A stretch of DNA of 64,000 bases from Actinomycetota bacterium. GTDB lineage: Bacteria; Actinomycetota; Actinomycetes; S36-B12; UBA10799. The translations under genes and the position numbers were made by a program. Every line of letters begins with the position of its first letter. The first letter of the stretch is position 1. This document shows, one piece after another, positions 28,106 through 46,642 of this stretch. The notes below the pieces were generated by a model that saw only the letters and a program-made list of their open reading frames with translations, had not been told where the DNA came from and did not search any database. The stretch covers positions 153,108 to 217,107 of the forward strand of contig JACJWU010000003.1 in the NCBI GenBank assembly GCA_020636995.1, written 5' to 3'.

Positions 28106-28124
28106 GTTGCACGTTCGTTGCACG
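28106..28124 (+). repeat. Candidate integrase arm-type site (left)
   Basis: GTTGCACGTTCGTTGCACG, identical to 46515-46533. It contains an internal tandem GTTGCAC with 11-nt phasing. Confidence 0.5.
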
Positions 28125-28167
28125 GCCGATCGCACGGCCAGCAGCCTGAGGACGGGGAGGGGTCAAG

Positions 28168-29329: not shown

Positions 29330-29350
29330 GCGCTGCACCCCGGTGATCGG

Positions 29351-29388
29351 CCCCCCGGAAATGGCGCTACAGGCGCTACACCGCTAAT
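29351..29388 (+). repeat. C-run-GAA-(GCGCTACA x3) module, copy B
   Basis: CCCCCCGGAAATGGCGCTACAGGCGCTACACCGCTAAT. Related copies at 30990-31029 (+) and 42513-42551 (-). Confidence 0.6.
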
Positions 29389-30989: not shown

Positions 30990-31029
30990 CCCCCCCGAAA
31001 CGCCGCTACACCGCAACAGCCGCTACACC
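30990..31029 (+). repeat. C-run-GAA-(CGCTACA-type x3) module, copy C
   Basis: CCCCCCCGAAACGCCGCTACACCGCAACAGCCGCTACACC. Confidence 0.55.
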
Positions 31030-31431
31030 AGGGGCCCCCTCTTGACGAGTTCAAGCCGTGGGATGTCTACGCGCATACCTCCCAAGCACGAGGGCGAGGG
31101 CCAGGTGGTCATTCGGAGGAAGATGCGTAGCGGGCCAGCTGTTCAACTACCCGGGCGCGCTTCTCGCGGCCCCTCGCGCCTTCGTGGCCATCGCGGCCGT
31201 CTTTCCGGACACCCGGAACGGCCACGCGTCCGGTATCGCCACGAGGCGCGCGCTTCGCGGCGGAAGGGGGCACCTTGGCGCGGCGCGGCACATACCGAGC
31301 GCTGTCCCGAATCAACGACACCCGCCACGAGGTCGTCGTCGTTCGCATCGACCACCGCCGTGACGTTTACCGGGTCAGCTGGCGGAAACTGGGTGCGGGC
31401 TCCGTCATCCGGCGACGCGCCCTTGCTTCGG

Positions 31432-31875
31432 TCAGGGCCGCCGGTTCGTCGCGCCCGGTAGGCCGACGTCGTGGGCGGCCAGGTGATCGAGCACCCGGTG
31501 GGCGAGGTCGAGGGTCAGGTTCAGGATCGCGTGGATCGTTCGGGTGAGGGCCACGGCGTCCAGTCCGGTGGTGGCGTGGGCGAGTTCCTCGACACGTGCC
31601 GCGAGGGACCGGTGCTGAGCAGCCATCGCCGAGGTCAGCAGCCGGACGCACGCGTCCTCCTGGCTCGAGTCCCGGGCCGCCTTGTCGAACTGCGCGTGAA
31701 TGGCGAGGTTGTCGGCCAGTGCGGCGAGCAGGTTGTCCCGGTGCTCGTGGATGGGCTCACCCGTGGTGGCAGCGGTGTGGATCGCCACCGCCAGGGGAGG
31801 GAATCTGGCGATCGTGCGTTCGTCGAGCTCGACAACGCGGTGCAGGGCGGCCGACTGGAACTGTGTGGGGTTCAC
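31432..31875 (-). CDS. Hypothetical His-rich helical protein
   Basis: The GTG at 31875 overlaps the stop of the MMPL remnant as GTGA. I could assign no family. Confidence 0.4.
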   Translation of the reverse strand: MNPTQFQSAALHRVVELDERTIARFPPLAVAIHTAATTGEPIHEHRDNLLAALADNLAIHAQFDKAARDSSQEDACVRLLTSAMAAQHRSLAARVEELAHATTGLDAVALTRTIHAILNLTLDLAHRVLDHLAAHDVGLPGATNRRP

Positions 31876-33510
31876 GTAGGTCCCCGCAACGGGGCGCCGT
31901 CGAGGGCGTCGACCTCGTCCTGGAAGGGGTCTTGGGTGGGGGGTTCCAGGGCGATCCTGGGTAGCCGGCGATCGAGCCACTGCGGGATCCACCAGGCGCG
32001 CCGGTCAGCCAGGGCCATGGCTGCCGGGACGAGGACCAGCCTGACCAGGGTGGCGTCGATGGCGATCGCGACCGCGAGCCCGAAGCCGAACAGGTTGACC
32101 ACCCTCTGGTCGTTGAGCAGGAAGCTGAGGAAGACGACGACCATGACCGAGGCAGCCGCGGTGATCACGCGGGCGGTGGCGGCCACGCCGTTGGCCACTG
32201 AGGCCCCGGCGTCATCGGTGCGGCGGAACTCCTCACGGACCCGGCTGAGCAGGAACACCTCGTAGTCCATGGACAGGCCGAACAGGACCGCGAACAGCAT
32301 CATCGGGGCGAAGGACTCGATGGGTCCCGGGGCTGTGCCGAACACGTCGTCGAACCAGCCCCACTGGAACACCGCGACCACGACCCCGTAGGCAGCGCCC
32401 ACCGAGAGCAGGTTCATGGCCGCTGCCTTGAACGGGATGAAGACCGATCGGAACTCGACGAGCAGCAGCGCCATGCTCAGCAGGACGACGAAGCCGATGA
32501 ACTAGAGCATCCGATCAGCGAGCCGGTCGGCCAGGTCCACGGCGGTCGCGGTGGCACCGCCCACGTGCGACGTCCCCTCGGCCTGGGGCAGCACGTCCGT
32601 GCGCAGTCGGTGGACCAGGTCCTCGGTGGAGGCGTCCTGCGGCGACCCGACCGGGACGACGTTGACGATGCCGGCGGTCGCGCTGGGGTTGAGGGTGGCG
32701 CTGGGCACGCTCGCGACTCCCGGCGTGGCAGCCAGGTCGGTGCGCAGCTCGTCGAGCCAGGCCTGGGCCTGCTCCGGCGAGGTGGCGCTGAGGTACTCGG
32801 CAGTGATCAGCAGCGGCCCGGTCCAGCCGGGACCGAACGCGTGCGCGACGATGTCGTAGGACCGCCGAGCGGTGCTGTCCGAGGGTGCGGACCCACCGTC
32901 GCTGCTGCCCAACCTGATCGAGAGCAACGGCGCGGCCAGGATCAACAGGACCACGGTTGCGGAGACCAGGTAGGGCCAGGGACGACGCTGGATGCGCCGG
33001 GTCCACCGGTGCCAGCCGCTGCCGTGGTCATCGGCGTGGTCGAAGCGTGGGCGGCGGACGCGCAGGCGGTCGAGGTTCCCGCCGAACACGGCCAGCAGCG
33101 CGGGCAGCAGGGTGACGGCCGCGAGCATCGTGGCGGCGACCGTGATGGCGCTGGCCAGGCCGAGCGCCGATACGAACGGGATCCCGATCAGGAACAGGCT
33201 GAGCAGCGCGACCATCACGGTGGAACCTGCCACCAGGACCGAGCGCCCGGCCGTGCCGACCGTGGTCTGGATCGACTCCCGCGGGTCGTGGCCGGTGATC
33301 ATCCCCTCCCGGTGCCGGGTCACGATCAGCAGCGCGTAGTCGATCCCGACACCGAGCCCGATCATCGCCGCGACGACCGGCGCGGAGGTCCCGATCGGGA
33401 TCCACGCGGACAGCAGGCCCACGACCGACAGGCCGAAGGCGAGGGCGAAGAGGGCCGTCACGATCGGCACGACCATGGCGTAGAGCGACCCGAAGGCGAG
33501 CAGGAGCGGG
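31872..33510 (-). pseudogene. MMPL-family (RND-type) transporter remnant
   Basis: MMPL-like TM blocks are present (GVGIDYALLIVTRHRE and later FIGFVVLLSMALLLVEFRS). An in-frame TAG at 32502-32504 interrupts them. The first TM helix and the first extracytoplasmic domain are missing. Confidence 0.75.
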
Positions 33511-33574
33511 GAATGAGGCCACTCCCCCGGCGTCCCCCGAGGCACCCGGCTCGGCCACGATTGAGGAGCTGGTC

Positions 33575-33904
33575 GTGACCGCCGTCGAGGACGCGGTGCA
33601 GCGCATGCTGGCCCAGGAGGACCTCGCCCGGTTCGTCTATAGCCTGCCCGTCCGGCACAGCGCCCTGCTGCGACCGGAGATTCGCACCACACCTCCCGTG
33701 TTCGTCGAGGTCACCCACCTGCTCGAGCAGGGGGTGCACCGAGGTGAGGTCCGCGACGACATCCCCGTCGACCTCCTCGCGCGCCACGTCCTCGCGGCCC
33801 TGGAGACCGCGATGCGCGACTGGGCCGAGGGCCGCGTCGAGGACCCGATGGCCCACCTGCGGACCATGCTCACCCTGAGCTTCCACGGCGTGACCAGGCC
33901 GTAG
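33575..33904 (+). pseudogene. TetR-family regulator, C-terminal ligand domain only (HTH missing)
   Basis: The helical C-terminal-type sequence has no recognisable HTH upstream in frame. It abuts the truncated 5' end of the divergent MMPL gene. Confidence 0.45.
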
Positions 33905-33992
33905 GGAGCGCCGCCACGCGCTGTCAGCGGACGACCGGTACCTGGCCGTCGAGATGATCGCCAGACTCCTGGCCAAGGGCCGGCTGCGGTAG

Positions 33993-34325
33993 CTATCCCT
34001 GGACCGCCACGGAGAGCAGGACCACGCTGTCCTCGAGTGCCTCCAGGCCGTGCCGACCCAGAGGGATGACCAGCAGGTCGCCCGCTGACCCGTCCCAGGC
34101 GGACTCGTCCTCAGTCAGGCGCACCGATCCATGCAGGACCTGGAGCGTGGCCTCGCCGGGGCTCTCGTGCTCGTCGAGGCGGTGGCCGCTGGCCAGCGCG
34201 ATCAGGGTCTGGCGCAACGTGTGCTCATGTCCGCCGTAGACAGTGTGGGCGCTTCGCCCGCTGGAGGCCCCGCGGGCGGCGGTGAGGTGCTGGTGGACCA
34301 GTTCGGTCAATGACGTGGTCTGCAT
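33993..34325 (-). CDS. Cupin-domain protein
   Basis: A 110-aa protein. HESPGEATLQVLHGSV followed by GDLLVIPLGRHGLEAL fits the two cupin motifs. ATG at 34325. Confidence 0.7.
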   Translation of the reverse strand: MQTTSLTELVHQHLTAARGASSGRSAHTVYGGHEHTLRQTLIALASGHRLDEHESPGEATLQVLHGSVRLTEDESAWDGSAGDLLVIPLGRHGLEALEDSVVLLSVAVQG

Positions 34326-34384
34326 GAGGTGCCCTTCTCGGATGGGTGCGTTCTGGGGGTCGGGGAATGGCGGTGTGCGCGGGG

Positions 34385-34693
34385 TCAGGTTCGGGACACC
34401 TGGACGTGCCCGTCGTGGACGCGTACCGGATAGGTGCGGACCGGTGCGGTCGCGGGCAGGTTCAGGGCCGCGCCGGTGCGCAGGTCGAACTTCGAGCCGT
34501 GCATCCAGCACTCGATCGTGGCGCCGTCGACCTCGCCCTCGGAAAGGGGCACGGCGGCGTGGGTGCATTCGTCGTGGACGGCGAAGACATCGGCGCCTGC
34601 ACGGACCACGCAGATGGCGTCACCGTCGACCATGACCGCGACCGGCATCCCGGCGGCCAGGTTGCGGAACTCGCACACGGTGATCCAACTCAT
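34385..34693 (-). CDS. Rieske [2Fe-2S] ferredoxin-type protein
   Basis: CTH-x17-CWMHG matches CxH...CxxH. About 100 aa, as for oxygenase ferredoxin subunits. Confidence 0.88.
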   Translation of the reverse strand: MSWITVCEFRNLAAGMPVAVMVDGDAICVVRAGADVFAVHDECTHAAVPLSEGEVDGATIECWMHGSKFDLRTGAALNLPATAPVRTYPVRVHDGHVQVSRT

Positions 34694-34836
34694 CTCGTGT
34701 CTTCCTCAGTCGCAGCAGCCCCTGACGTGTGGGTAGCGCAGGACGGGCAGCCGTCTGCCGAACGGCCGTTGAGCCGGCCGCAGTTGGGGCACACCTGTGA
34801 CAGCCAGCAGGCCGGGTCACCACCCTGCTCGCTCAC
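34690..34836 (-). CDS. Small zinc-ribbon protein (48 aa), not resolved as a separate ORF in the six-frame track
   Basis: Reading from the GTG at 34836 gives VSEQGGDPACWLSQVCPNCGRLNGRSADGCPSCATH. The stop overlaps the Rieske ATG as ATGA. Confidence 0.5.
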   Translation of the reverse strand: MSEQGGDPACWLSQVCPNCGRLNGRSADGCPSCATHTSGAAATEEDTR

Positions 34837-34888
34837 CGTGACGCCCGCACTGTAGCCGTCGCAGGGTTCGGTGCGGTCCGCGGGACGT

Positions 34889-35317
34889 TCACGGTGCCCG
34901 CTTCTGGATGCGGTCCCACGCTGCCCCGTCGAGGGCGACGGCTGCGGCCGGGAAGATGCCGTTCTCCTCCTTGTCGATGTGGCGGCGCAGCAGGTTCTCG
35001 AGCTCCTGGACGTCTGAGTGGTCACCATCAGCAACTCTGGCCAGGCGGGCGTCGATCTCCCGGTGCTCGGCGCACAGGGCGTCGACATGGTCCGCGAAGT
35101 CCTCGTCGAGGCGCAGCTCGGCGAACAGGCCCTGCTCCTCGCCCCTCGTGTGCGGGTCGAGCAGGGCCGCGAGCTCCTCAACAGCAGTCGCCGCCTCCGT
35201 ACCGTCACCGTCGAGGACGACGCGGCGCAGGGCACCGGTGGCATTGATGATCGCCACGTGCTCGGTGGACAGCCGACCGATCATGGTGATGGCCCGGCAG
35301 CCGCAGTAGGAGCACAC
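34889..35317 (-). CDS. Hemerythrin (HHE cation-binding) domain protein
   Basis: N-terminal MCSYCGC, and His/Glu-rich helices (STEHVAI, HTRGEEQ, CAEHREID, RRHIDKEEN). Confidence 0.8.
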   Translation of the reverse strand: MCSYCGCRAITMIGRLSTEHVAIINATGALRRVVLDGDGTEAATAVEELAALLDPHTRGEEQGLFAELRLDEDFADHVDALCAEHREIDARLARVADGDHSDVQELENLLRRHIDKEENGIFPAAAVALDGAAWDRIQKRAP

Positions 35318-35323
35318 GAGCGA

Positions 35324-35617
35324 TCAGGCGCGCTGCAGCCGGATGTGCCACGCCTCCGGACCGGCCTGCAGGTACTCGACGGCAACGCCCTCGGGGTAGC
35401 GGTCGCGGGCCTGCGCGAGGAGGGGCTGCGGATCGTGCGGGGCCACCAGGACCAGGGCGCCACCGCTGGGCAGGGAGTCCAGCGCCCCGAAGATGGCAGC
35501 GTGCCGGATGGCGTGCGGGATCTCCCGAGCATCAAGCACCGGCGCGTCGTGGCCCTGGGACTCGCCGCAGGTGCAGCCGGAGTGCGAGTGGGGCAGGGTA
35601 GGCAGGGGCTCGATCAC
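35324..35617 (-). CDS. DUF2249-like protein
   Basis: LDAREIPHAIRHAAIFGALDSL followed by LVLVAPHDPQPLL, then WHIRLQR. This matches my memory of the DUF2249 pattern. A GAGGAG Shine-Dalgarno sequence lies 7 nt upstream of the GTG at 35617. Confidence 0.7.
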   Translation of the reverse strand: MIEPLPTLPHSHSGCTCGESQGHDAPVLDAREIPHAIRHAAIFGALDSLPSGGALVLVAPHDPQPLLAQARDRYPEGVAVEYLQAGPEAWHIRLQRA

Positions 35618-35628
35618 GGTGGACTCCT

Positions 35629-35682
35629 CGGTTGTGGCTGGGTGTGGCTGGGTGTGGCTGGGTGTGGCTGGGTGTTGGCTGG
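35629..35682. repeat. Tandem 10-nt repeat (GGTGTGGCTG), about 5 copies
   Basis: Three perfect units at 35641-35670 are flanked by 11-nt variants (GGTTGTGGCTG and GGTGTTGGCTG). The array fills the divergent intergenic region. Confidence 0.9.
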
Positions 35683-35702
35683 ACCGTTCACCAAATACTA
35701 CA

Positions 35703-36425
35703 GTGTCTCCTGTGGAAAATCACGGCCCTCGCCCCATCCGGCACGACGACGCCCTGCCTTGGCTGTCTCCTGCCCGCGCCCGGGTCCTTGAGTTCCTCCA
35801 GTCCCAGGCCGGCCCGGTCGCTGCGGAGCAAGTTGCCGGAGTGTTCGGCCAGCATGTGAACACCGTGCGCGGACATCTCGACGCGCTCGTCGAGGACGGC
35901 CTGGCACTGCGTCACCGGCAGGGCACCTCCGGTCGCGGGCGACCCGCATGGCACTACCGGGCCAACCCCCAGAACCCGGAGCCCGACGCGCGGGTCCGCG
36001 AGTACGGGGCGCTGGCCGGAGCCCTGGCAGCGCACCTGATCCGGACCTGCCCTTCCCCCACCGAAGAGGCGCGGGTCGCGGGGGTCGACTGGGGCCGCCG
36101 GATCGCCCAGGACCGGCATCGCCAGCCTTCCCCAGCCGCTCAGGACACCACCCATGCCCGCCACGAGGTCCTGGCCATCCTCGACGACCTCGGGTTCGCG
36201 CCGCAGGAATCCTCCGACTGCGACAGCGTGCGGCTGCTTCGGTGCCCCCTGCTGGACGTCGCCCGCCAGTACCCCGAGATCATCTGCCAGGTCCACATGG
36301 GGCTGATCTCGGGCGCGCTCACCGAGCTCGGAGGCGATGACGCGGGGGTCGACCTGCTGCCGTTCGCCGAGGCCGATGCCTGCCGGCTGGTCCTGCCCCA
36401 CGCTCCCTCGCCGGCGCGGTCATGA
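35703..36425 (+). CDS. Winged-helix transcriptional regulator with a Cys-rich C-terminal domain (ArsR/SufR-like, COG2345-like)
   Basis: HTH region ARVLEFLQSQAGPVAAEQVAGVFGQHVNTVRGHLDAL. C-terminal SSDCDSVRLLRCPLLDVARQYPEIICQVH, then ADACRL. Start is the GTG at 35703 or 35712. Confidence 0.75.
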   Translation: MSPVENHGPRPIRHDDALPWLSPARARVLEFLQSQAGPVAAEQVAGVFGQHVNTVRGHLDALVEDGLALRHRQGTSGRGRPAWHYRANPQNPEPDARVREYGALAGALAAHLIRTCPSPTEEARVAGVDWGRRIAQDRHRQPSPAAQDTTHARHEVLAILDDLGFAPQESSDCDSVRLLRCPLLDVARQYPEIICQVHMGLISGALTELGGDDAGVDLLPFAEADACRLVLPHAPSPARS

Positions 36426-37546
36426 CCACCACAGACGTGGACGCGGAGCACCCCCAGCCGAGGTCGCGTCGCACTCCGGTGCCCCGCCCGGTGCCCCGGG
36501 GCCGGCTCGCGCTGCTGCTGGGCGGTGGCGTCGCCATGCTCCTGGGGCTGGACGCGGGACTTCTGCTGCTCGGCCTGCCCGCACCGGTGACCATCGAGCG
36601 CCTGCCCGAGGTCCACGGGCAGCTGATGCTCATCGGCTTCCTCGGCACCGTGATCGCCCTGGAGCGGGCCGTGGCACTGCGCCGGCCCTGGGGCTTCAGC
36701 GCGCCACTGGCCACCGGGTTCGGCTCCCTGCTGCTGCTCACCGCCCTGCCCATCGAGGTCGGGCAGGTTGTCCAGCTGATCGGACTCTCGGTGCTGGTCG
36801 GGATCTACGGTGCCCTATGGCGGCGGGCGGCATCCACGGCGGTCGCGATCCAATGGCTGGGCGCCGTGCTCGCCACCGGTGGGGTGCTGCTGTGGACCAC
36901 CGGCGTCACCACCGGTGCCCTGTTCCCCTGGCTGGCCGGCTTCCTCGTGCTCACGATCGCCGGCGAGCGCCTCGAGCTGGCCCATGTGGCGGCACCGGGA
37001 CCGGGCGCTCAGGCCGGCCTGCTGGGGATCAGCGCTGCAGTCGCGATCGGCGCAGCCGCGGCCCTGCTCTGGCCGACCCCGGGGACTGAGGTCTTCGGCC
37101 TGGCCCTGCTGGCCCTCGTGGGGTGGCTGCTGCGCCACGACGTGGCCACCCGCACGGTGCGCTCGGTGGGTCTCCCCCGGTACTCGGCGGTCAACCTGCT
37201 GCTGGGGATGGCCTGGCTGGCGGTCGCCGGCGGATCCTGGGTGGTGCTCGGCCCCCAGGTCGACGGCCCCGGCTACGACCTGGTCGTCCACGCGGTGACC
37301 CTGGGCTTCGCCATGTCCATGGTGCTCGCACACGCCCCGATCATCCTGCCCGCGGTCCTGGTCCGACCGCTGCCCTACCGCCCGGTGCTCTACGCCGCCA
37401 CCCTGGCGCTGCAGCTCTCGCTGATCCTGCGGGTTGCCGGTGACATCCGCGGGATCGGGTGGGCCTGGCAGGGTGGCGGGGCGGGCAACGTCCTGGCACT
37501 GCTGGGATTCGTGGCGCTGTCGGCCGTCCTGGTCGTGCGCCGATGA
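36422..37546 (+). CDS. Polytopic membrane protein of unknown function (possibly NnrS-like)
   Basis: ATGA coupling at both ends. About 10-12 hydrophobic helices with conserved-looking His (EVHGQLMLIGF, VVHAVTLGFAMSMVLAHAP). Confidence 0.7.
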   Translation: MTTTDVDAEHPQPRSRRTPVPRPVPRGRLALLLGGGVAMLLGLDAGLLLLGLPAPVTIERLPEVHGQLMLIGFLGTVIALERAVALRRPWGFSAPLATGFGSLLLLTALPIEVGQVVQLIGLSVLVGIYGALWRRAASTAVAIQWLGAVLATGGVLLWTTGVTTGALFPWLAGFLVLTIAGERLELAHVAAPGPGAQAGLLGISAAVAIGAAAALLWPTPGTEVFGLALLALVGWLLRHDVATRTVRSVGLPRYSAVNLLLGMAWLAVAGGSWVVLGPQVDGPGYDLVVHAVTLGFAMSMVLAHAPIILPAVLVRPLPYRPVLYAATLALQLSLILRVAGDIRGIGWAWQGGGAGNVLALLGFVALSAVLVVRR

Positions 37547-40167
37547 ACCGGTCCACGTGGCACGCCCGCACCTCCACCGTCGTCCTGGCCTGGCTGGCTG
37601 CCGCCGCGCTCGTGGCGCTGGCGCATCGGCAGGTCCCCGCCTCCACCTGGCTGATGGTGCACCTGCTGATGCTGGGGGCGGTCACCAACGCCCTGGTCAT
37701 CTGGAGCTGGCACTTCACGGTCGCGGTGCTGCGGGCACCGCCAGCCAGGTCCCGCCGGGGTGAGGTGCTGCGCCTGGTTGCCGTCAACGCCGGCGCCCTC
37801 TCGGTCGTTGCGGGGGTGCTGCTCGACGTTGCGCCCGCCGTGGCTGTCGGCGCCGCGCTCCTGGCTGGCGCTGTGCTCAGCCACGTGGTGACGCTGCTCA
37901 CGATGATGCGCCGTGCCCTGCCCAGCCGGTTCGCGATCACGGTGCGGGCCTACGTGGCGGCGGGGATCCTGCTGATCCCGGGGATCGCCCTGGGAGTGGC
38001 CCTCGCAGACGGGTCGCAGGCTCCCACCGTGCACAGCCAGCTGCTGCTGGCCCATGTGTCGGTGAACCTGATGGGCTGGGTCGGGCTGCCCATCATGGGA
38101 ACGCTGGTGACCCTGTGGCCCACGATGCTGCGTACCCGGTTGGCGCCCGGAGCTGAGCGCAACGCGCGGCGGGCGCTGCCGGCGTTCGTCCTGGGCACCC
38201 TGGTCACCGCCGCAGGCGTGCTCGCCTCGGTCCATCTGCTCGCCGTCGCCGGGATCGCCGCATACCTGGTCGGGATCGCCTGGACGATCGGACCCATGGC
38301 GGTCGCGATACGCCAGCGCCCGCCGGCCTCGTTCCCCGCCTGGTCGACGCTGGCGGGGGTCGGGTGGATCGTGTCGTCGCTGGCCTCCTTCGCCCTGGTG
38401 CTCGCGCTGAACCCGGACGCGGAGACTGCGACCCAGAGCATGGGGACGTTGACAGCCGCGGTCATCGTCGGTGGTGTCCTCCAGGTGCTCCTGGGTGCCC
38501 TGAGCTACCTGTTGCCGGTGATGGCCCGTGGGGGGCCCGCCTCGATGCGCCAGCGAATCGCGCACGTCGACCGGGGACTCGGCCTTCGCCTGGTGACCGT
38601 GAACCTCGGGCTCGCCGTGTGCGTGCTGCCCAGCCCGAGTGCGGTCCGGGTGCTGGCCTCCGTGGCCGTGCTCGCAGCGCTGGTCAGCACTGGCGCCCTG
38701 CTCGTCACCGGGACCCGCACCGCCCCACCGGGGGTGGACCCGGCGACCTCGGAGGGCGCCGTGGCCCCCGCACCCGGCCTGGGCCGGCACAGCCACGGCA
38801 TCGCGCTCGGGCTCGCCGTCATCCTGCTCGCCGTGGCCGGCGGAGTGGCGCTCGACCCGGCAGCCCTGGGAGGTGCCGCAGCCACTGCTGAGCCGGCCTC
38901 CGCGGGAGTCACGGCCACCGGCGAGGTCACCCGGGTCACGGTCACCATCCAGGGGATGCGCTTCACCCCGGACACGCTCCGGGTGCCCGCCGGGAACTCG
39001 CTGCAGATCACCGTGGTCAACAGCGGCGACGACGTGCACGACCTGGTCCTGGAGACCGGTGAGCGCACGCCGCGGCTCTCCCCGGGACAGTCGGCTACGC
39101 TGGAGATCCCCGTCGTGGGCCGCGACCTGGCCGGGTGGTGCTCCATCGCCGGTCACCGGCAGATGGGCATGGTCCTGGCCATCGAGGTCGACGGGGCCGG
39201 TGCCACCACCGCCGGGCTTGGGACCTCCGGGGAGCACTCAGAGCTCACCGAACACACCGACACCGGCGGCGAGCTGGAATCGGCAGACCGCCCCAGTCCG
39301 GACCTCATGGCTGAGCCCGGTCCCGGGTTCAGCGCGTACGACGCACGCCTGGCGCCGGCACCCAAGAGCCGCACCCACCGGGTCCGCCTGGTCGTGACCG
39401 AGACGGAGGCCGAGGTGGCCCCGGGTGTCCGCCAGACCCGATGGACCTTCGGTGGCACCGCACCGGGGCCTGTCCTGCGCGGGCGGGTCGGCGACACATT
39501 CCTGGTCACCCTGGTCAACGACGGCTCCATCGGGCACTCGATCGACTTCCACGCCGGCGCCCTGGCCCCGGACCGCCCGATGCGCACCATCGCCCCCGGG
39601 GAGGAGCTGCTCTACCGGTTCACCGCCACCCGGGCGGGCATCTGGATGTACCACTGCTCGACGATGCCGAGGTCCATGCACATCGCCAACGGGATGTTCG
39701 GGGCGGTAATCATCGACCCACCCGACCTCGCCCCGGTCGACGAGGAGTTCGTCCTCGTGCAGTCCGAGTCCTACCTCGGACCCCAGGGCGCCACCGCCGA
39801 TGCCGACGCGATCGCCGCCGGTGAGCACGACCTGGTCAGCTTCAACGGCTACCCCATGCAGTACCGCCACCAGCCCCTGACCGTCGGCGTGGGCGACCGG
39901 GTGCGGATCTGGGTCCTGGCCGCCGGACCCAACATCGGCTCGGCGTTCCACGTCGTCGGCGGCCAGTTCGACACCGTCTACCGGGAGGGCACCTACGACC
40001 TGACCCCCGGAACCGGTGGCTCCCAGGTCCTCGGCCTGTTCCCGGCACAGGGCGGCTTCGTCGAGCTCCCCCTCCCCGAAGCCGGCAACTACCCCTTCGT
40101 CTCCCACATCATGTCCGACGCCGAACGCGGCGCCACCGGGATCCTGCAGGCCGTGGTCGCTCCCTGA
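37543..40167 (+). CDS. nirK: Copper-containing nitrite reductase fused to an N-terminal ~13-TM domain and an extra cupredoxin domain
   Basis: The C-terminal part has GHSIDFH, YHCSTMPRSMHIANGMFG, AFHVVGG and FVSHIM, which supply the T1 and T2 Cu ligands plus the catalytic Asp and His. The middle domain has DVHDL and WCSIAGHRQMGM. The first ~445 aa are hydrophobic helices. Confidence 0.88.
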   Translation: MNRSTWHARTSTVVLAWLAAAALVALAHRQVPASTWLMVHLLMLGAVTNALVIWSWHFTVAVLRAPPARSRRGEVLRLVAVNAGALSVVAGVLLDVAPAVAVGAALLAGAVLSHVVTLLTMMRRALPSRFAITVRAYVAAGILLIPGIALGVALADGSQAPTVHSQLLLAHVSVNLMGWVGLPIMGTLVTLWPTMLRTRLAPGAERNARRALPAFVLGTLVTAAGVLASVHLLAVAGIAAYLVGIAWTIGPMAVAIRQRPPASFPAWSTLAGVGWIVSSLASFALVLALNPDAETATQSMGTLTAAVIVGGVLQVLLGALSYLLPVMARGGPASMRQRIAHVDRGLGLRLVTVNLGLAVCVLPSPSAVRVLASVAVLAALVSTGALLVTGTRTAPPGVDPATSEGAVAPAPGLGRHSHGIALGLAVILLAVAGGVALDPAALGGAAATAEPASAGVTATGEVTRVTVTIQGMRFTPDTLRVPAGNSLQITVVNSGDDVHDLVLETGERTPRLSPGQSATLEIPVVGRDLAGWCSIAGHRQMGMVLAIEVDGAGATTAGLGTSGEHSELTEHTDTGGELESADRPSPDLMAEPGPGFSAYDARLAPAPKSRTHRVRLVVTETEAEVAPGVRQTRWTFGGTAPGPVLRGRVGDTFLVTLVNDGSIGHSIDFHAGALAPDRPMRTIAPGEELLYRFTATRAGIWMYHCSTMPRSMHIANGMFGAVIIDPPDLAPVDEEFVLVQSESYLGPQGATADADAIAAGEHDLVSFNGYPMQYRHQPLTVGVGDRVRIWVLAAGPNIGSAFHVVGGQFDTVYREGTYDLTPGTGGSQVLGLFPAQGGFVELPLPEAGNYPFVSHIMSDAERGATGILQAVVAP

Positions 40168-40168
40168 T

Positions 40169-41389
40169 TCAGGCGCCGTCCTCAGGCTGGGACCACGTGA
40201 TCTGGACCTCGGCGAACCCGCCTGCGGGAGCGCTGGCCCGCACCGGCTCGCCAGCCAACCGGAACGCGGGCTTCGCCGCCAGAAGCGTGTCCAGCACGAT
40301 CCCGAGTTCCAGGCGCGACAGCCCCTCGCCGGGGCAGTAGTGCGGACCACGCCCGTAGAGCAGGTTACCGGCCGCATCCCTGTCCAGCCGGAACTCAGTC
40401 GGCTCGGCGAACACGGCCGGGTCGCGCTGCACAGCCGGCCACAGGATCGTCACTGGAGCATCACTCGGGATCACCCGGTCAGCGACGTGCACCGGTCGGG
40501 TCGCGCGCCGGCGGTTGGTCACCAGAGGCGCCTCCAGGCGCAGCATCTCGTCTATGGCCGCCTGGCGCAGGCCGTCAGGCCCTGCGCGCAGCCGGGCCCG
40601 CACGTCGGGGTTACGGGCCAGGAACTCCACGATGATGCCCACCGCGGCCGAGATCGTGCCCAACTCACCAGCGGTCCAGTTGCGCACGATGCTGACCAGC
40701 TCTTCGTCGGTCAGCGGCCTGCCGTCCACGCGCTCGTCGAGCAGCTGGTGCGTGAGGGTCCGGGGGGCGCTCGGTGCTTGCGCCCGGGCGCGGTCTAGTT
40801 CGGCGACGATGATGCGATCAAAGTGAGCGGCCACCCGGTCGAGCCCGGCGCGGTCCCGTTCCCGGGTCGCCCGCTGCGAATCCACCGCCCACGCCCGCAG
40901 CGCCTCGGCCACGGCTGGCGGCCAGCCCAAGTAGGCGCACTGCGCCTGGGCGGCGTACGGCTCGCCGAGCGCGGTCATCACCTCGACTGGCTGGCCGGCC
41001 GCGGACAGGTCCACCACCAGCGACTCGGCGATCCGGCGCAGGTCCGGAGCGAATTCCGCGACGCGTTGCGGTGTGAAGCATCGGTCGACCACCGCCCGGA
41101 ACGCCGCGTGCTCGGCACCGTCCATCCCGTTGGGCACCGCCACATGGGTCGATACCCGCGAGCTGAATGTGACCGGATCGTGCAGGGCCGCCAGCACGTC
41201 GGCGTGGCGCAACAGCGACCAGCCTTGAGTCTCGCTGTACGCGACCGGGCACCGCTCACGGAGCGCGTCATAGGTCCGGGTCTGGTCGTCGCCCACCTCG
41301 CGCGGGTCCCACTCCGACACCTGATCCGAACCTCCAGTGATATCCACGGCGCGCAGTGTAGTGAGATGATCCAGTCTTCCCTGGCCCAC
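40169..41389 (-). CDS. Cytochrome P450
   Basis: EMLRLE (ExxR) and YGRGPHYCPGEGL (Cys-ligand loop). Convergent with nirK, with 1 nt between the two stops. Confidence 0.88.
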   Translation of the reverse strand: MGQGRLDHLTTLRAVDITGGSDQVSEWDPREVGDDQTRTYDALRERCPVAYSETQGWSLLRHADVLAALHDPVTFSSRVSTHVAVPNGMDGAEHAAFRAVVDRCFTPQRVAEFAPDLRRIAESLVVDLSAAGQPVEVMTALGEPYAAQAQCAYLGWPPAVAEALRAWAVDSQRATRERDRAGLDRVAAHFDRIIVAELDRARAQAPSAPRTLTHQLLDERVDGRPLTDEELVSIVRNWTAGELGTISAAVGIIVEFLARNPDVRARLRAGPDGLRQAAIDEMLRLEAPLVTNRRRATRPVHVADRVIPSDAPVTILWPAVQRDPAVFAEPTEFRLDRDAAGNLLYGRGPHYCPGEGLSRLELGIVLDTLLAAKPAFRLAGEPVRASAPAGGFAEVQITWSQPEDGA

Positions 41390-41452
41390 GCCGGTGCCGA
41401 GCTCGCTGGCCGAGCGAAGGGTCGCGACAAGCCGGATCTGTGGATCGGCGCG

Positions 41453-42067
41453 TCAGCTGCTGGCACTCCGCGGGTCGAGCATGGTCAGTGCCATCCGGGA
41501 GGGCTCGAGGGCCAGGATTTCGTGGGGCACGCGGGATCCGATGTGGACCAGCCCGCCTGGGCTGAGTTCGACGTGCTCCCCATCCGCACCGACGCGCAGC
41601 CGCCCGTCGAGGACCTGCAGCAGGATCGGGACACCAGCCCGGGTTGTTCGGCCTGCCCGCGCGGGCAACCCGGACCGGAGCGCGGCGTCTATGTCGGCGG
41701 CGATCGTCTGCAGGGTGACCAGGCCGGCCACGGTCAGCGGGCCGCCGGTGGCGTTGAGGTGGCGGGCGATCTGGTTGAGGTTGTTTCCGATCCGGGCCAG
41801 CTGGACCACCACCGCCGGATCCACTGGCGGGGCCACCGCTCGGCCCAACCCGGTCCGGCGTCGCGGCGGGCGGCGGCCCACCCACCCTGCAGGCTCACCG
41901 GGTCGCGCCGCGGCGACCTGCCCGCGGACCCAATCGGAGACCGTCAGCTCGGCGGCAGCAGCCGCAGCTCGCCAGCCCGCGGCGACCTGCTCGGGCAGGC
42001 GCACCGTCACCTTCGCGGTGGACGCGCCCTGCGGGGCGCGTGGTGGGCGACCCATCAGGGCGCCCAC
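41453..42067 (-). CDS. Chimeric ORF: MobC-like mobilisation protein fused to the C-terminal half of a cupin
   Basis: The N-terminal ~145 aa contain LARIGNNLNQIARHLN (the MobC signature). The C-terminal ~60 aa (ILLQVLDGRLRV and later GGLVHIGSRVPHEILALE) parallel the second half of the cupin at 33993-34325. Confidence 0.6.
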   Translation of the reverse strand: MGALMGRPPRAPQGASTAKVTVRLPEQVAAGWRAAAAAAELTVSDWVRGQVAAARPGEPAGWVGRRPPRRRTGLGRAVAPPVDPAVVVQLARIGNNLNQIARHLNATGGPLTVAGLVTLQTIAADIDAALRSGLPARAGRTTRAGVPILLQVLDGRLRVGADGEHVELSPGGLVHIGSRVPHEILALEPSRMALTMLDPRSASS

Positions 42068-42352
42068 TCGGGGGATCGAAGGGGGCCGCAGGCCCCCTCG
42101 CCGGCCTCGGCCGGACGGAGGCCGCGACAGCGGATTCCGTCCGACGAGTAGGCTGGCTTGCTCTCATCGGGCATGGCCCTGACGGGTGAGGTGGAAGCGG
42201 GCTGGCTTCCGGACGCTGGCAACGACGGGGGGGTCGGAACACGCCAGATCCGTTTGCGGCTTGCCCTCGGATGCCAGCCCTTGCGAAGGGTCCCGCGCCA
42301 TTGGGCGCAGGCCCGGCACACCCGCGCCTCGCCGACAGCATTGGTCGGATGT

Positions 42353-43711
42353 TCACGCCCCGACACTGTGGCCTCCAGCGGTGGTGCGTCCAGATGTAGC
42401 GGCCAGGGCCTCACGCGTAGCGCCGTCGTCGGTGAGCGCCGCTACAGCTGTTGGCAGCCGTTCTTCACGGAATTGAGCACGATTCGTTCCCGATTCCTCT
42501 TGATGATGAGTGTGTGTAGCGGGTGTAGCGCCTGTAGCGGGCTTCTGGGGGACGCCCCCGAACGGGTTCCCAACTGGCTCCCCATGAATGGGCGGTAGGT
42601 AGCGCATCCACGCATCGGAGAGGTCGACCTGGCGATAGCCCTTGGCGACCGTGGCTCCGACGCGGAGGTTGGTCGACCGGATCTCATAGCCGCGCAGGCG
42701 TCGAGCCAGGCCAGACGGGTCCAGCGGCTTGCCGCGCAGATCCCTCCACGGGGATTCCTCCAGACCCAACAGGCCCGCCAGGAGGGGGGCCGTCGCCAGG
42801 GCATCCGGGTTGCCAGCCTCGAGGAAGACCCGACGCAGGTCCGCCAGCAACAGCAGGCTGAGCGAAGGCTCGGCTGCGCCGGCGCGGCCTGCGACGAAGT
42901 GCAGGCACGCCTCGGCCGCACGACCCGGCCAGGCTCCGCCGACTCCTTCGGCGACCGCCAACAGCGGCTCCCAAACATCGGCTGGCCGATCCGTCACACC
43001 AGCGGGCAGCACGGGGTCCTCGGGTATGACCAGAGAGTCGAGGGCGGCAGCCAACTGCTCGCCGATCGCCAGACCCTCGGGCTCGTGGACCCGCAACCGG
43101 TAGGGCTCGACGGCCTCGCCCGGACCCCGCCGGCGCATCTTGACGATGACGGATCGTGTGGCGATCGTGTCTGGCACGTCGTGCAAGCCGGCAAGGGCAA
43201 CGGCCGCGAAGGAAGCGAAGCTGACCACCGTGTGGGTGTTGCCGACTGACTCGCACCGGAAGGTGAGGCCCGACCGGCGGTGACCGGCGTTGAGGAACGC
43301 CCGCAGTTCCTCGTTCTCCCTGGCCTTCGGTCCGAACACCGAGTCGATCTCGTCGAAGAGGATCGTCGGCCGGTTGTCGAGGTCGCCCACGGCCCGGAAC
43401 AGGGCCGCCGGAGTGCAGTGAACGGCGTGCATCGGCCTGCGGACGAGCGAGCCGATCACCTCCAGCGCCCGGGTCTTGCCGCTACCAGGCTCTGGGGACA
43501 GGAAGGCCAGCCTGGGCGTTGAGTCGAAGTGCTCGAGCAGGTAGCTGTGCGCCACCCAGAGGGACGTGGCCACGCGGGCGTACTCGCTGGGGAAGCAGAC
43601 GAACCTGCCGAGGAATGCTTCCGTGGCGTCCAGGGCTTCGGACGGAGGCATGGGGCGCGAGTTGCCCCCGCCGACCTGGTTCGGGGACCGCGCCTCGGGC
43701 CGCGCAGTCAT
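42353..43711 (-). CDS. DUF3631-like P-loop protein of integrative elements
   Basis: SPEPGSGKTRALEV (Walker A) and TILFDEID (Walker B-like). The ATG at 43711 overlaps the stop of the Xis-like gene as ATGA. Confidence 0.75.
   Translation of the reverse strand: MTARPEARSPNQVGGGNSRPMPPSEALDATEAFLGRFVCFPSEYARVATSLWVAHSYLLEHFDSTPRLAFLSPEPGSGKTRALEVIGSLVRRPMHAVHCTPAALFRAVGDLDNRPTILFDEIDSVFGPKARENEELRAFLNAGHRRSGLTFRCESVGNTHTVVSFASFAAVALAGLHDVPDTIATRSVIVKMRRRGPGEAVEPYRLRVHEPEGLAIGEQLAAALDSLVIPEDPVLPAGVTDRPADVWEPLLAVAEGVGGAWPGRAAEACLHFVAGRAGAAEPSLSLLLLADLRRVFLEAGNPDALATAPLLAGLLGLEESPWRDLRGKPLDPSGLARRLRGYEIRSTNLRVGATVAKGYRQVDLSDAWMRYLPPIHGEPVGNPFGGVPQKPATGATPATHTHHQEESGTNRAQFREERLPTAVAALTDDGATREALAATSGRTTAGGHSVGA
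42513..42551 (-). repeat. C-run-GAA-(CGCTACA x3) module, copy A (inside the DUF3631 3' coding region)
   Basis: The minus strand reads CCCCCAGAAGCCCGCTACAGGCGCTACACCCGCTACAC. Confidence 0.55.
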
Positions 43712-44100
43712 GACCGACCCCACTCCGCGACCGAACCCGCGGCCAGGGCCTTGTCGAGCATCCGCGACGCGGCAGCACGGGCGTCCGGATCCGCACGAGT
43801 TGCTCGGCGCTTGGCCGTCTTCACTGGAACGGCAGGCGCCGGGGTTGGGGCCACCTCCACAGCGGGAACGGTCCTGGCTGCGATGAAGTCGACGATCTGC
43901 GCCTCGGTGTAGCCGATCCGGTGACGCTGGTCCCCAACGCCAAGACGGACGTGACCTATCGCGCCGCAGAGGGTGAGCTTGCGCAGCATCGACGTGGAGA
44001 TGTTGAGCCTCTGGGCTGCCTCGCTCGGGAGGTGGACGCGCGGGGTACCAATTGGATCCCGGGCGGTGGTGGATGGATGAGCGTTCGTGCTTCGTAACAT
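43708..44100 (-). CDS. Excisionase/MerR-type helix-turn-helix DNA-binding protein
   Basis: HLPSEAAQRLNISTSMLRKLTLCGAIGHVRLG, then YTEAQIVDFI. Located upstream of the DUF3631 gene. Confidence 0.65.
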   Translation of the reverse strand: MLRSTNAHPSTTARDPIGTPRVHLPSEAAQRLNISTSMLRKLTLCGAIGHVRLGVGDQRHRIGYTEAQIVDFIAARTVPAVEVAPTPAPAVPVKTAKRRATRADPDARAAASRMLDKALAAGSVAEWGRS

Positions 44101-44202
44101 GAGGGGGCGAGGGCACGCCGCGGAGTCAAGGGCAGGACGTGGGAGGTCGGCACACAGGCGCTCCGGGGCGTGCCCGACTCCTCACGATCGATGGGGTCGC
44201 AA

Positions 44203-44766
44203 CTACGCGGCGCCGGCCTCCGCGCATCGCTGCGGCGAACCGGGCGCTCGCAGTTCGGCCACGAAACGTGCCAACTGGAGGGGCGAGGGCACGGGCCAGG
44301 AGTTGGTGAGCGCACGCATCCTGATGGAGGCGACGCAGGTCCGCCAAGGCCTTCCCACCAAGTGGGTGACCAGGCCGGCGAAGGCAAGCCGGATGGCAAG
44401 CCGCACACGAGCAAGGGTGGTCACAGCCCGAGAGGCCCTCCGATGAAGGCGGTCCGCAGGAAGGATCTGGAGGCCCAGCAACACCGACGTGAGGATCACC
44501 GCCCACGACGTGGCAACCCCCAGGACTGTCGGCACCTCCTGGCTCTGCGTCAACCACCGCAGCTGTACGAGAGCAAGGACCAGACTCGCCGCCAGGGTGA
44601 CGATCTCGGGCAAGAAGTACGCGAACACCTCGGGCCAGGTTGCGGCCGGCGGTCGCGATCTGTCGCCTTCCCTGGCGTTGGACCACGGGTGATGCGGTAC
44701 GGACTGCGGCACACGAAGCCCTGATAAGGCTCGGGTTGCGGCCGTTCCACGCATGGAATGCACCAT
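44203..44766 (-). CDS. Hypothetical small membrane protein
   Basis: Two or three hydrophobic helices. Same orientation as the Xis-like gene. No recognisable family. Confidence 0.3.
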   Translation of the reverse strand: MVHSMRGTAATRALSGLRVPQSVPHHPWSNAREGDRSRPPAATWPEVFAYFLPEIVTLAASLVLALVQLRWLTQSQEVPTVLGVATSWAVILTSVLLGLQILPADRLHRRASRAVTTLARVRLAIRLAFAGLVTHLVGRPWRTCVASIRMRALTNSWPVPSPLQLARFVAELRAPGSPQRCAEAGAA

Positions 44767-44901
44767 AGCGTCCGATTCGTCCGGCTGACTACGGGGGGCA
44801 AAGCTAAGGTGAGAGTTTGCGTAGTTTAGTCTCCACGTCCAGATGTGCGCTCGGAACGATTGGGATGACCACACCCTGGCGCGCCAGCACTGCCATCTCG
44901 C

Positions 44902-44932
44902 GAGTGATACTCTAAAGCTCTGAAAGTATCAC
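44902..44932. promoter_or_regulatory. Inverted repeat upstream of the fic gene
   Basis: AGTGATACT-N13-AGTATCACT has 9-bp perfect arms. It lies 30 nt upstream of the GTG at 44962, in a locally lower-GC stretch. Confidence 0.45.
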
Positions 44933-44961
44933 TTCGACCGCAGATCGGTAGACAAGTAGCA

Positions 44962-46122
44962 GTGGATCCCAGCCAGTTCAGTCCGAAGAGCAGGGCCAAC
45001 GTTCGCCGTGCTGAGGGCGGATACTGGGCGTTCCTCCCGCCGCCGCTTCCGCCCGACGTCGCCCTCTCGCCGAAGCTGATCGGCGCACTCTCGGAGGCCG
45101 ACCGAGCGGTCGGCGAGGTATCCGGCTTGGGCCGCACGCTGCCGAATCCCCACCTGCTCGCTATGTCGCTGTTGCGACGTGAGGCGGTACTGTCCAGCCG
45201 CATCGAAGGCACTCAGGCATCAATGTCGGACTTAGTGCTCTTCGAGGTCGATCCCGCGACAGCTGATCGCTCGGGCGACGTGCAGGAAGTGGCCAACTAC
45301 GTCAGAGCGGCCAACCATGTGCTGGACCCCGGGCGGCGGCTTCCGATGAGCCTGCCGCTGTTGCTTGAGGCCCACGCAATGCTGCTGGAGGGTGCTCGTG
45401 GCGCTTCCGCCTCGCCTGGGGAGTTCCGTCGCAGCCAGAACTGGATCGGAGCCCCGGGTAGCTCGCTGCAGGACGCCACGTACGTGCCGCCCGCACCAGA
45501 GGAGTTGTGGGGCTGCCTGGATGCGTTCGAGAAGTACCTGCACGCCAATGACGAACTACCTCCGCTGCTTCGGATCGCCGCGATCCACTACCAGTTCGAG
45601 GCCATCCACCCCTTCCTCGACGGCAACGGTCGGATCGGCCGTCTTCTCGTGGTGGCCCTCATGGTCGAGTGGGGCCTGTTACCCAGCCCATTGCTGGAAA
45701 TCTCCGCCTACATCGAGCCCCGGCGGGACGCCTACTACGACGCCCTCTCGGCCGTCAGTGTCGATGGGGACTGGCAAGGATGGTTCCACTACTTCCTGGA
45801 GGCCGTAACCGTGCAGTGCCACTCAACCGTCGAGCGTGCGACCAAGCTTCGAGCGCTGCGCGACGACTACCGCGCAAGGATGGCCACACCTCGGGCGTCC
45901 GCCCTGCTACCGACGTTGGTGGACTCGCTGTTCGCGTCACCAGCCACAACAATCGCCCAAGCCCGGTCACTGCTCGGCGTCACCCATCGAGCGGCCACGA
46001 TGAATGTGGAGAAGCTCGTCTCTTCGGGGATCCTTACCGAGGTAGCTGGCCGGGGGCGGTCTCGGCTCTTCCTCGCCACCGAGATCCTGGACACCCTAGC
46101 CACTGTGCCGACGCCCCGGTGA
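44962..46122 (+). CDS. Fic-family protein (class II, N-terminal inhibitory helix)
   Basis: HPFLDGNGRIGR active-site motif. N-terminal SSRIEG matches the (S/T)xxxE(G/N) inhibitory motif. Confidence 0.9.
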   Translation: MDPSQFSPKSRANVRRAEGGYWAFLPPPLPPDVALSPKLIGALSEADRAVGEVSGLGRTLPNPHLLAMSLLRREAVLSSRIEGTQASMSDLVLFEVDPATADRSGDVQEVANYVRAANHVLDPGRRLPMSLPLLLEAHAMLLEGARGASASPGEFRRSQNWIGAPGSSLQDATYVPPAPEELWGCLDAFEKYLHANDELPPLLRIAAIHYQFEAIHPFLDGNGRIGRLLVVALMVEWGLLPSPLLEISAYIEPRRDAYYDALSAVSVDGDWQGWFHYFLEAVTVQCHSTVERATKLRALRDDYRARMATPRASALLPTLVDSLFASPATTIAQARSLLGVTHRAATMNVEKLVSSGILTEVAGRGRSRLFLATEILDTLATVPTPR

Positions 46123-46233
46123 GACATTCTTGACTGGCCGCACGCGGAGCCGCCTGCACCAGACTGCTTCGTCGGCGGCCAGTTCGCCGCTACCTTGGGC
46201 AGCATCGCCAGCACTCGGAGAGGGGTGAGCGCC

Positions 46234-46482
46234 ATGTGCGTGGTGCCGAATCGCGACATGGACCCAACGCCCGAGTTTGGCCCGCAGAGGCGGGCTGCAG
46301 AGCATTGTCGGTCCAACGAAGCCGAGGCCGGGGCAATCCTCGCCGCGGCTGTCCTCCCGGTCAGAGAAGGCCTATTCACAGCACTCCACAAGTCGTTCGC
46401 TGACCTTGGTGGAGGGGAGCTCGAACTGCCGCCCCGGACCCCGGATGGCGCTCGCCGTATCGGCAAGGACCGGTCCCCTTGA
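46234..46482 (+). CDS. Ribbon-helix-helix antitoxin-like ORF (FitA/VapB-like), possibly degenerate, with no cognate toxin
   Basis: RRAAEHCRSNEAEAGAILAAAV followed by GGGELELPPRTP resembles RHH antitoxins. A GGAGAGG sequence lies 9 nt upstream of the ATG. Confidence 0.4.
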   Translation: MCVVPNRDMDPTPEFGPQRRAAEHCRSNEAEAGAILAAAVLPVREGLFTALHKSFADLGGGELELPPRTPDGARRIGKDRSP

Positions 46483-46510
46483 TCCCGCTCTCCAAGCTGC
46501 TCGAACCGCG

Positions 46511-46533
46511 GTTCGTTGCACGTTCGTTGCACG
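46511..46533 (+). repeat. Candidate integrase arm-type site (right)
   Basis: GTTCGTTGCAC GTTCGTTGCAC G. It shares an identical 19-mer with 28106-28124. Confidence 0.5.
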
Positions 46534-46597
46534 TGCTACTTCGGTCGCCTCTGAAAGTGCCCACGCCATAGGCATTTCCGCTTTCGCGACTGACAGA

Positions 46598-46642
46598 TTC
46601 CCAAGCTGACAGTGCGAGTTCGATTCTCGTCACCCGCTCCAC
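46598..46642 (+). repeat. attR core: a displaced 3' fragment of a tRNA-Gly
   Basis: 43/45 identity to 27956-28000. There is no tRNA 5' half upstream. Confidence 0.85.

Follow-up and report, generated by a model that had tools for sequence, protein, structure and literature searches.

A membrane-integral copper nitrite reductase of Actinobacteria with an oxidase-fold membrane domain, a possible entry point for menaquinol electrons

Introduction

How does a copper nitrite reductase (NirK) that works outside the cell obtain its electrons in a bacterium that has neither a periplasm nor soluble cytochrome c? The enzyme makes nitric oxide (NO), which is the committed step of denitrification and a source of nitrous oxide (N2O), and many Actinobacteria, a group abundant in soil, wastewater and on skin, have only a long form of it. 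A locus that bears on this question lies in a stretch of 64,000 nucleotides from an Actinomycetota bacterium (assembly GCA_020636995.1, contig JACJWU010000003.1, positions 153,108 to 217,107 of the forward strand). We refer to this whole stretch as the window, and use its own numbering throughout. In the gene at 37543–40167 (+), a polytopic membrane domain (Y), a cupredoxin and a NirK are joined in a single protein, and a second polytopic protein (X) is encoded directly upstream. The product of this gene is a copper nitrite reductase integral to the membrane, one of a class that is common in Actinobacteria.

This class is not new. Actinobacterial NirKs of 700–990 amino acids (aa) exist, and one of them, the ~900-aa NirK of Propionibacterium acnes, was described as a 400-aa transmembrane domain of unknown function together with a cupredoxin, an architecture credited there to a previous survey of genomes for new classes of copper nitrite reductase; the transmembrane domain is not present on all actinobacterial NirKs (Decleyre et al. 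2016, PMC4770552). The P. acnes (now Cutibacterium) enzyme, from the same phylum, shares with the window protein the overall size of ~900 aa, the N-terminal transmembrane domain of ~400 aa, the C-x4-H-x4-M motif of the cupredoxin and the NirK. There is no structural difference between the two, and the window protein is another member of the class. The architecture has therefore already been described bioinformatically, as a known, widespread and functionally uncharacterised class that would not surprise specialists familiar with the 2007–2016 literature, and no study of the biochemistry or structure of the Y membrane domain came up in the literature searched. What is new here is the assignment of an oxidase fold to both Y and X, the map of their conserved histidines, the coupled gene for X, the conserved operon, the variants that lack NirK and the location of the operon on a tRNA-Gly island.

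A cupredoxin and a two-domain NirK follow the membrane domain

The gene is one intact open reading frame (ORF) of 874 codons, translated into a protein of 874 aa, and its start codon, ATG, shares nucleotides with the stop of the 374-aa ORF that encodes protein X (36422–37546, +), in the sequence cgccgATGAacc. A preliminary description of the locus, made from the sequence alone, had given a three-part ORF (polytopic region, cupredoxin and NirK) coupled through ATGA to a 374-aa polytopic protein; the translation, the hydropathy and the Pfam and NCBIfam matches bear out the first statement, and the overlap bears out the second. All parts being on the + strand, the membrane domain Y (residues 1–392, 37543–38718) is followed by a further transmembrane helix (TM13, residues 415–437, 38785–38853), a flexible linker, the tethered type-1 copper cupredoxin (residues 459–550, 38917–39192) and, after a long acidic linker, the two-domain NirK (residues 610–874, 39370–40164).

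The cupredoxin was identified by Pfam Cupredoxin_1 (PF13473), which matches residues 459–523 (E = 7.8e-10), and by alignment to the tethered N-terminal cupredoxin of HdNiR (2dv6), the three-domain NirK of Hyphomicrobium denitrificans. Further along the chain, Pfam Cu-oxidase_3 matches residues 618–727, and TIGR02376 (NirK, EC 1.7.2.1) aligns to residues 610–869 (E = 5.8e-41, 140.9 bits). The fusion matches over 50 solved structures of NirK, 2dv6 being the best match (residues 477–869, E = 6.5e-46). In this comparison the cupredoxin and NirK align with HdNiR as one unit, which shares with it the catalytic Asp and His as well as the copper sites, two of type 1 and one of type 2. However, HdNiR is a soluble periplasmic enzyme that is fed by a soluble cytochrome c, whereas here the unit is attached to a membrane region of 13 helices.

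Ligand conservation was read from 67 aligned sequences, namely the query and 66 fused homologues from other genomes. The cupredoxin ligands H499, C533, H538 and M543 are invariant in 67/67. The His, Cys and His ligands proposed in the preliminary description are confirmed by this, but the spacing that it gave for the Met is not: the motif is C-x4-H-x4-M rather than C-x4-H-x2-M. The Met at the x2 position, M541, is present in 61/67 sequences as against 67/67 for M543, and from the alignment the axial ligand is most likely M543, as in HdNiR. In the NirK, the type-1 copper ligands are H665, C705, H713 and M718, the type-2 copper ligands are H670, H704 and H855, and the catalytic residues are D668 and H803. 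H665, D668, H670, H704, C705, H713, H803 and H855 are found in 66/67 sequences, the remaining one being gapped. The NirK is, as had been claimed, a complete two-domain enzyme, with all copper ligands and the catalytic Asp and His located and conserved. M718 (at about 39694–39696) is Met in 59 and Leu in seven of the aligned sequences; the change to Leu (7/67, in homologues within the series L008–L087) is expected to raise the redox potential of the type-1 site.

It could be argued that in the living cell the C-terminal domain does not reduce nitrite, and has instead another two-domain multicopper oxidase activity with a different substrate. The TIGR02376 score lies under the NCBIfam equivalog cutoff (140.9 versus 296.3 bits), the sources name the identical protein "multicopper oxidase domain-containing protein" or "copper oxidase" as well as "nitrite reductase (NO-forming)", and the structures matched also include entries described as "multicopper oxidase" (3gdc, 4kns and 7rab). 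Nevertheless, the NirK-specific residues D668 and H803 and the three-His type-2 copper site are kept in all ungapped sequences, there is no set of HxH motifs for a trinuclear cluster, genuine NirK structures, HdNiR among them, give the strongest matches (E = 1e-46 to 1e-38), and the operon is linked to narGH in Micromonospora. A different activity is thus very improbable, and the domain is a NirK of the divergent clade II type.

The membrane domain Y has the fold of an oxidase catalytic subunit

Hydropathy and the AlphaFold model agree on a core of 12 helices (residues 3–392), a cytoplasmic loop and then the 13th helix (residues 415–437, hydropathy peak 2.53), close to the count of about 13 hydrophobic helices made previously. 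The Arg clusters are confined to the N-terminus and the loops that follow TM2, 4, 6, 8, 10 and 12. According to the positive-inside rule, this places the N-terminus inside, and everything past TM13, that is the cupredoxin and the NirK, outside the cell, since TM12 ends on the cytoplasmic side and TM13 takes the chain across to the outer side. The extracellular location of the copper domains that had been suggested from the odd number of helices agrees with this distribution.

Sequence comparisons give no family for Y. Neither the N-terminal 445 aa of the query nor 55 homologues match a Pfam or NCBIfam family, even at E = 5, and this includes Pfam PF00115 (COX1), for which Y has no match at the same threshold. 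The Y profile finds only chance matches among the sequences of the Protein Data Bank (PDB), with E = 0.3 or worse, and gives no signal against NorB in a profile comparison (hhalign probability 0.2%). The families that had been put forward for checking (NnrS, CopD and cytochrome b) could not be upheld, with no Pfam match to any of them for Y or for X.

The structural model gives a clear assignment. The AlphaFold model of Y, built from 55 homologues, has a mean predicted local distance difference test score (pLDDT) of 91.5 and a predicted template modelling score (pTM) of 0.89. When it is compared with the PDB by Foldseek, the top 43 matches are all catalytic subunits of heme-copper oxidases (HCOs) or NO reductases, including NorB of the cytochrome c-dependent NO reductase (cNOR; 3o0r_B and 4xyd_A), CcoN of the cbb3 oxidase, subunit I of the ba3, aa3 and bo3 oxidases, and the quinol-dependent NO reductase (qNOR). 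For these 43 matches E ranges from 5.5e-4 up, the TM-score is mostly 0.5–0.6 and the probability is at or near 1.00, and the match that follows them is an unrelated protein with E = 0.29 and a probability of 0.18. On the predicted structure we therefore assign to Y, with confidence, the 12-TM fold of an HCO or NO reductase catalytic subunit.

Residue conservation was scored in 248 homologues of Y and in 119 homologues of X. In Y, two histidines in the outer half of the membrane, H40 (TM2) and H171 (TM6), are 100% conserved, followed by H114 (TM4, 94%), H57 at the inner end of TM2 (88%, with Tyr in the rest) and H7 (TM1, 70%). Other conserved residues are R349 in the TM11 region (100%), Q314 (TM10, 99%), and Y137 and N354 (at least 94%). 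The His-containing segments noticed in the preliminary description hold H40, H57 and H171, and its remark that the membrane module is far larger than an anchor is justified, as Y is a conserved 12-TM family with invariant intramembrane His.

In HCOs, the helices TM2, TM6 and TM10 carry the heme and metal ligands. The helices of X and Y were equated with those of HCOs by their order along the chain and not by residue-level superposition, which we considered appropriate because the fold matches span the full length of the proteins. Compared in this way with the HCO catalytic subunits (NorB, CcoN and CoxA/CyoB; PF00115), X and Y share the 12-TM fold and the helix order (TM-scores of 0.5–0.72), conserved His on TM2, TM6 and TM10, and a cupredoxin on the outside, like the CuA domain of subunit II. 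They differ from them in having no detectable sequence similarity, and in the number of canonical His: of the six present in HCOs (one on TM2, one on TM6, two on TM7 and two on TM10), X and Y keep only two or three positions. In Y only H40 and H171 are at or near a canonical position, with H57 and H114 elsewhere, in X those kept are H65 (TM2) and H290/H304 (TM10), and the TM7 His pair is absent from both the Y and the X alignments. As the canonical set is missing, neither X nor Y has a canonical binuclear centre for the reduction of O2 or NO. There are also weak signs of an internal three-fold repeat in Y, between units 1 and 2 (probability 28%, E = 6e-4) and between units 1 and 3 (probability 18%, E = 1.3e-3).

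Protein X is a second oxidase-fold protein

Like Y, protein X has no match in Pfam or NCBIfam at a threshold as loose as E = 5. Its AlphaFold model, obtained from 30 homologues (pLDDT 91.6), is predicted to have 12 TM helices in a fold resembling HCO subunit I. The best Foldseek match is cbb3 CcoN (8smr_E; TM-score 0.72, root-mean-square deviation 4.8 Å, probability 1.00), and 3mk7 and then an aa3 subunit of M. tuberculosis are found among the further matches. Since both X and Y are assigned an oxidase fold, the locus encodes two oxidase-fold proteins in tandem. The residues of X that are 99–100% conserved comprise H65 on TM2, H290, M300 and H304 on TM10, and also E81/R82, E182/R183/E185 and D240. 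As possible paralogues, X and Y give no match by BLASTP, and in hhalign a weak one (E = 0.018, probability 2.6%) that is colinear over 285 columns.

In work from 2014, Pei and colleagues are said to have defined 12-TM "HCO homology" families, reportedly including NnrS, with two conserved His and one predicted heme, which gene context is said to tie to denitrification or NO detoxification. X and Y fit this description and may belong to these families.

The fusion is genuine and widespread in Actinobacteria

The window is metagenome-type sequence, and a few relatives are split or frameshifted (L033 and L088), so the long ORF had to be considered as a possible artefact of assembly or annotation that joins two genes. 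No direct support for this was found. The identical 874-aa protein is present on 157 contigs from independent sources, mostly metagenome-assembled genomes (MAGs) that bear the label Nanopelagicales or Actinomycetota; 66 genomes from many genera, of isolates or MAGs, have the same fusion; and TM13 and the linkers are in frame, without a stop codon. An assembly fusion of two genes, which the preliminary description had named as a possible objection, is therefore refuted, and the fusion is genuine.

With clustering at 50% identity, 1345 representatives match the Y profile. When one genome was scanned for each species, at least 594 stretches encoding Y were obtained, of which the best 80 loci were analysed. 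Y, cupredoxin and NirK form a single ORF at 66/80 of these loci, are split or frameshifted at one and are cut by a contig end at seven, whereas at the remaining six Y occurs without a nearby NirK. Among the genera with the fusion are Mycobacterium, Mycolicibacterium, Rhodococcus, Streptomyces, Arthrobacter, Nocardioides, Intrasporangium, Sanguibacter, Cellulomonas and Knoellia, and X is encoded directly upstream of it in 59/66 cases. On a Micromonospora chromosome the same parts are encoded by split, overlapping genes, for the helix-turn-helix (HTH) regulator, X (398 aa), Y (413 aa) and a cupredoxin–NirK (465 aa), which adjoin narGH. This fission keeps the order X, Y, cupredoxin–NirK, which argues that the parts work together.

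Some variants of the architecture were also observed. A stand-alone oxidase-fold subfamily (L007, L045, L067, L069, L070 and L072) has no X, cupredoxin or NirK, and is usually accompanied by the HTH regulator and a DUF2249 protein. Locus L089 encodes X and a Y of 581 aa bearing a C-terminal extension, with no NirK. The MAG CAZECO01 has three paralogous fused Y/NirK genes (L008, L012 and L014), with 89%, 59% and 58% identity to the window protein.

A possible route for electrons from menaquinol to NirK

In HCOs, subunit I takes electrons from the CuA cupredoxin domain on the outer face, while bo3 and qNOR take them from quinol. We favour, somewhat short of an even chance, a mechanism in which a heme-binding membrane module passes menaquinol electrons through the cupredoxin to NirK, all steps of which we infer from the sequences and models. 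Y would bind a b-type heme in the outer half of the membrane through H40 (TM2) and H171 (TM6), and X may bind heme through H65 (TM2) and H290 (TM10). The module would oxidise menaquinol, and single electrons would be transferred from heme to the copper of the tethered cupredoxin, then to the type-1 copper of NirK and finally to its type-2 copper, the site at which, outside the cell, nitrite would be converted to NO. In this way the fusion would replace the soluble donors, cytochrome c or pseudoazurin, which are missing from a monoderm actinobacterium.

A redox role for Y is favoured for three reasons: Y is covalently linked to the cupredoxin–NirK, or encoded by a conserved adjacent gene; the natural partner of its fold is a cupredoxin on the outer face, and two branches of the fold use quinol; and its invariant His are on ligand-bearing helices, in the outer leaflet. 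If electrons do enter by this route, nitrite would be reduced straight from the menaquinol pool, bypassing the bc complex, which would change both the energy yield and the way in which actinobacterial nirK gene counts are read. The locus also provides a two-gene, genetically defined system for probing oxidase-like membrane families.

A more far-reaching possibility is that X and the fusion together constitute either a two-step denitrification machine, carrying NO on to N2O, or a new quinol:cupredoxin oxidoreductase, each of which would be a new catalytic branch of the HCOs; we give it little weight. In the first case, the oxidase-fold domains would consume the NO released by NirK at a non-canonical heme or metal site, and in the second there would be a third heme pocket, between TM2 and TM6, that is empty in canonical HCOs.

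It is also conceivable that the membrane domain performs no redox chemistry, and serves to anchor and organise the NirK trimer or to aid its loading with copper. Monoderm bacteria must tether their extracellular enzymes, and other Gram-positive NirKs have been described as membrane-bound or membrane-associated (PMC3475470). In addition, the Pfam and NCBIfam searches of Y found no cofactor motif of a known family. However, TM13 alone would suffice as an anchor, and in Micromonospora the cupredoxin–NirK is a separate gene product. Furthermore, the Y family is large and has invariant His, Gln and Arg within the membrane, whether fused or not, and the HCO fold is a redox fold and not a transporter fold. 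For these reasons a scaffold or maturation role appears unlikely.

Conserved neighbours point to NO or nitrate

The gene layout around the fusion is conserved, with DUF2249 and hemerythrin genes on one side and, divergently, the genes for the HTH regulator, X and the fusion on the other. In the window, these correspond to a hemerythrin-domain protein (34889–35317, −; 142 aa by the longest ORF; Pfam PF01814, E = 3.6e-16), a DUF2249 protein of 97 aa (35324–35617, −; Pfam PF10006, E = 1.8e-25), which is divergent from the regulator–X–NirK operon, and an HTH_20 (ArsR-like) regulator (35712–36425, +; Pfam PF12840, E = 4.4e-07), the start of which is uncertain (35493, 35712 or 35841). A repeat search of the divergent intergenic region revealed four tandem 10-nt repeats, GGGTGTGGCT, at 35630–35679, between the start of the DUF2249 gene (35617) and the called start of the regulator gene (35712), and these are a possible operator for the HTH regulator. 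Homologues of the regulator are present in 66/80 loci and also directly upstream of Y copies that lack NirK, and homologues of DUF2249, which also accompany such copies, in 57/80. In L088 and L089 a single protein at the equivalent divergent position combines the hemerythrin and DUF2249 domains.

In Haloferax, DUF2249 proteins are induced when the cells denitrify, and in Thermus they have been implicated in nitrate sensing; a 2024 paper, citing Pei, Li, Kinch and Grishin 2014 (Protein Sci 23:1220), links DUF2249 to the heme-copper oxidase superfamily. In the main alternative explanation, X and Y do not supply NirK with electrons, and bind, sequester or reduce the NO that it releases at the membrane surface, either as an NnrS-like protection or as a degenerate NO reductase, the fusion merely setting an NO sink beside the NO source. 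This agrees with the behaviour of DUF2249 in Haloferax and Thermus, with cNOR NorB being the top Foldseek match of Y, and with the occurrence of Y alone, or of X–Y, without NirK and with the same regulator and DUF2249/hemerythrin partners. The role in denitrification or NO detoxification that was reportedly proposed for the HCO homology families also speaks for it. There is also a parallel arrangement in Sinorhizobium, where nirK directly adjoins nnrS, which encodes a 12-TM, His-rich protein.

NnrS is a heme- and copper-containing 12-TM protein of NO-responsive regulons. NnrS (PF05940), which is encoded beside nirK on Sinorhizobium pSymA and is also found alone in NO-related contexts, resembles X and Y in its 12 TM helices and its abundance of His, but differs from them in the pattern of conserved His. 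The X and Y profiles gave no signal in hhalign against a 19-sequence NnrS alignment (probability 0.1–0.2%), nor against the S. meliloti NnrS sequence, which as a positive control matches PF05940 at E = 1.9e-113. Sequence similarity to NorB is likewise undetectable, even between profiles, and the ranking of NorB above cbb3 and ba3 in the Foldseek search is within noise (E = 5.5e-4 versus 6.7e-4). Moreover, X and Y are devoid of the ligands of a binuclear centre, namely the three FeB/CuB His of TM6 and TM7 as well as the two proximal His of TM10, and NO handling would not account for the way in which a NirK outside the cell is supplied with electrons. Elsewhere in the 64-kb window, which does not cover the whole genome, we found neither a canonical NorB nor a canonical NnrS. 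Overall, we consider a role in NO handling somewhat less likely than the route from menaquinol; if it were true, it would account for the tolerance of nirK-bearing actinobacteria to the NO that they make.

Several observations count against the route from menaquinol that we favour. The cofactor and quinol sites in Y and X are predicted only, and X is missing at 7/66 fused genes. Y occurs without NirK or cupredoxin in 6/80 genomes and in L007, and L089 has X–Y without NirK. The NirK domain scores under its equivalog cutoff, as mentioned above. Finally, hemerythrin and DUF2249 surroundings are typical of NO- or nitrate-responsive gene sets, so that NO handling fits them equally well. The regulator and DUF2249 genes still stand alongside the NirK-less copies in L007, in L089 and in most of the six genomes, so that the role of the module is not wholly tied to NirK; an intrinsic role, possibly related to NO, fits these copies at least as well.

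Next to the hemerythrin gene there is a gene for a Rieske [2Fe-2S] protein of 102 aa (34385–34693, −), and a small cupin of 110 aa (33993–34325, −) is encoded beside the Rieske and hemerythrin genes. The cupin recurs in 16/80 loci, often just downstream of NirK, and the Rieske protein in 3/80. On the other side, a cytochrome P450 gene (40169–41320, −) lies tail to tail with the NirK gene. Fungal P450nor reduces NO, and we considered the P450 as a conserved partner of NirK on this analogy, but a homologue is present in only 4/80 loci and this candidate was rejected. The gene looks like cargo of the island described below.

The operon is located on a tRNA-Gly integrative island

The nirK operon lies inside an integrative island of ~18.6 kb (27926–46642), which means that the trait may be mobile. 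It has a tRNA-Gly(CCC) gene (27926–27999) and a 49-nt direct repeat of the 3′ half of this tRNA (27952–28000 and 46594–46642, 94% identical), with a second repeat, of 22 nt, at 28103 and 46512. Its cargo includes a phage-type integrase (~28.5 kb), IS110 transposase genes, MobC/NikA (41453–42067, −), a DUF3631 protein (42353–44116, −) and a Fic protein (44962–46122). The GC content is 70–73% over 30–42 kb, compared with 65–68% for most other parts of the window. An MMPL/RND transporter gene at 31872–33692 (−) is represented by pieces of ~200 aa and 324–396 aa, each with a partial match to MMPL profiles. It lies beside a copy of IS110, and is probably a disrupted gene of the island.

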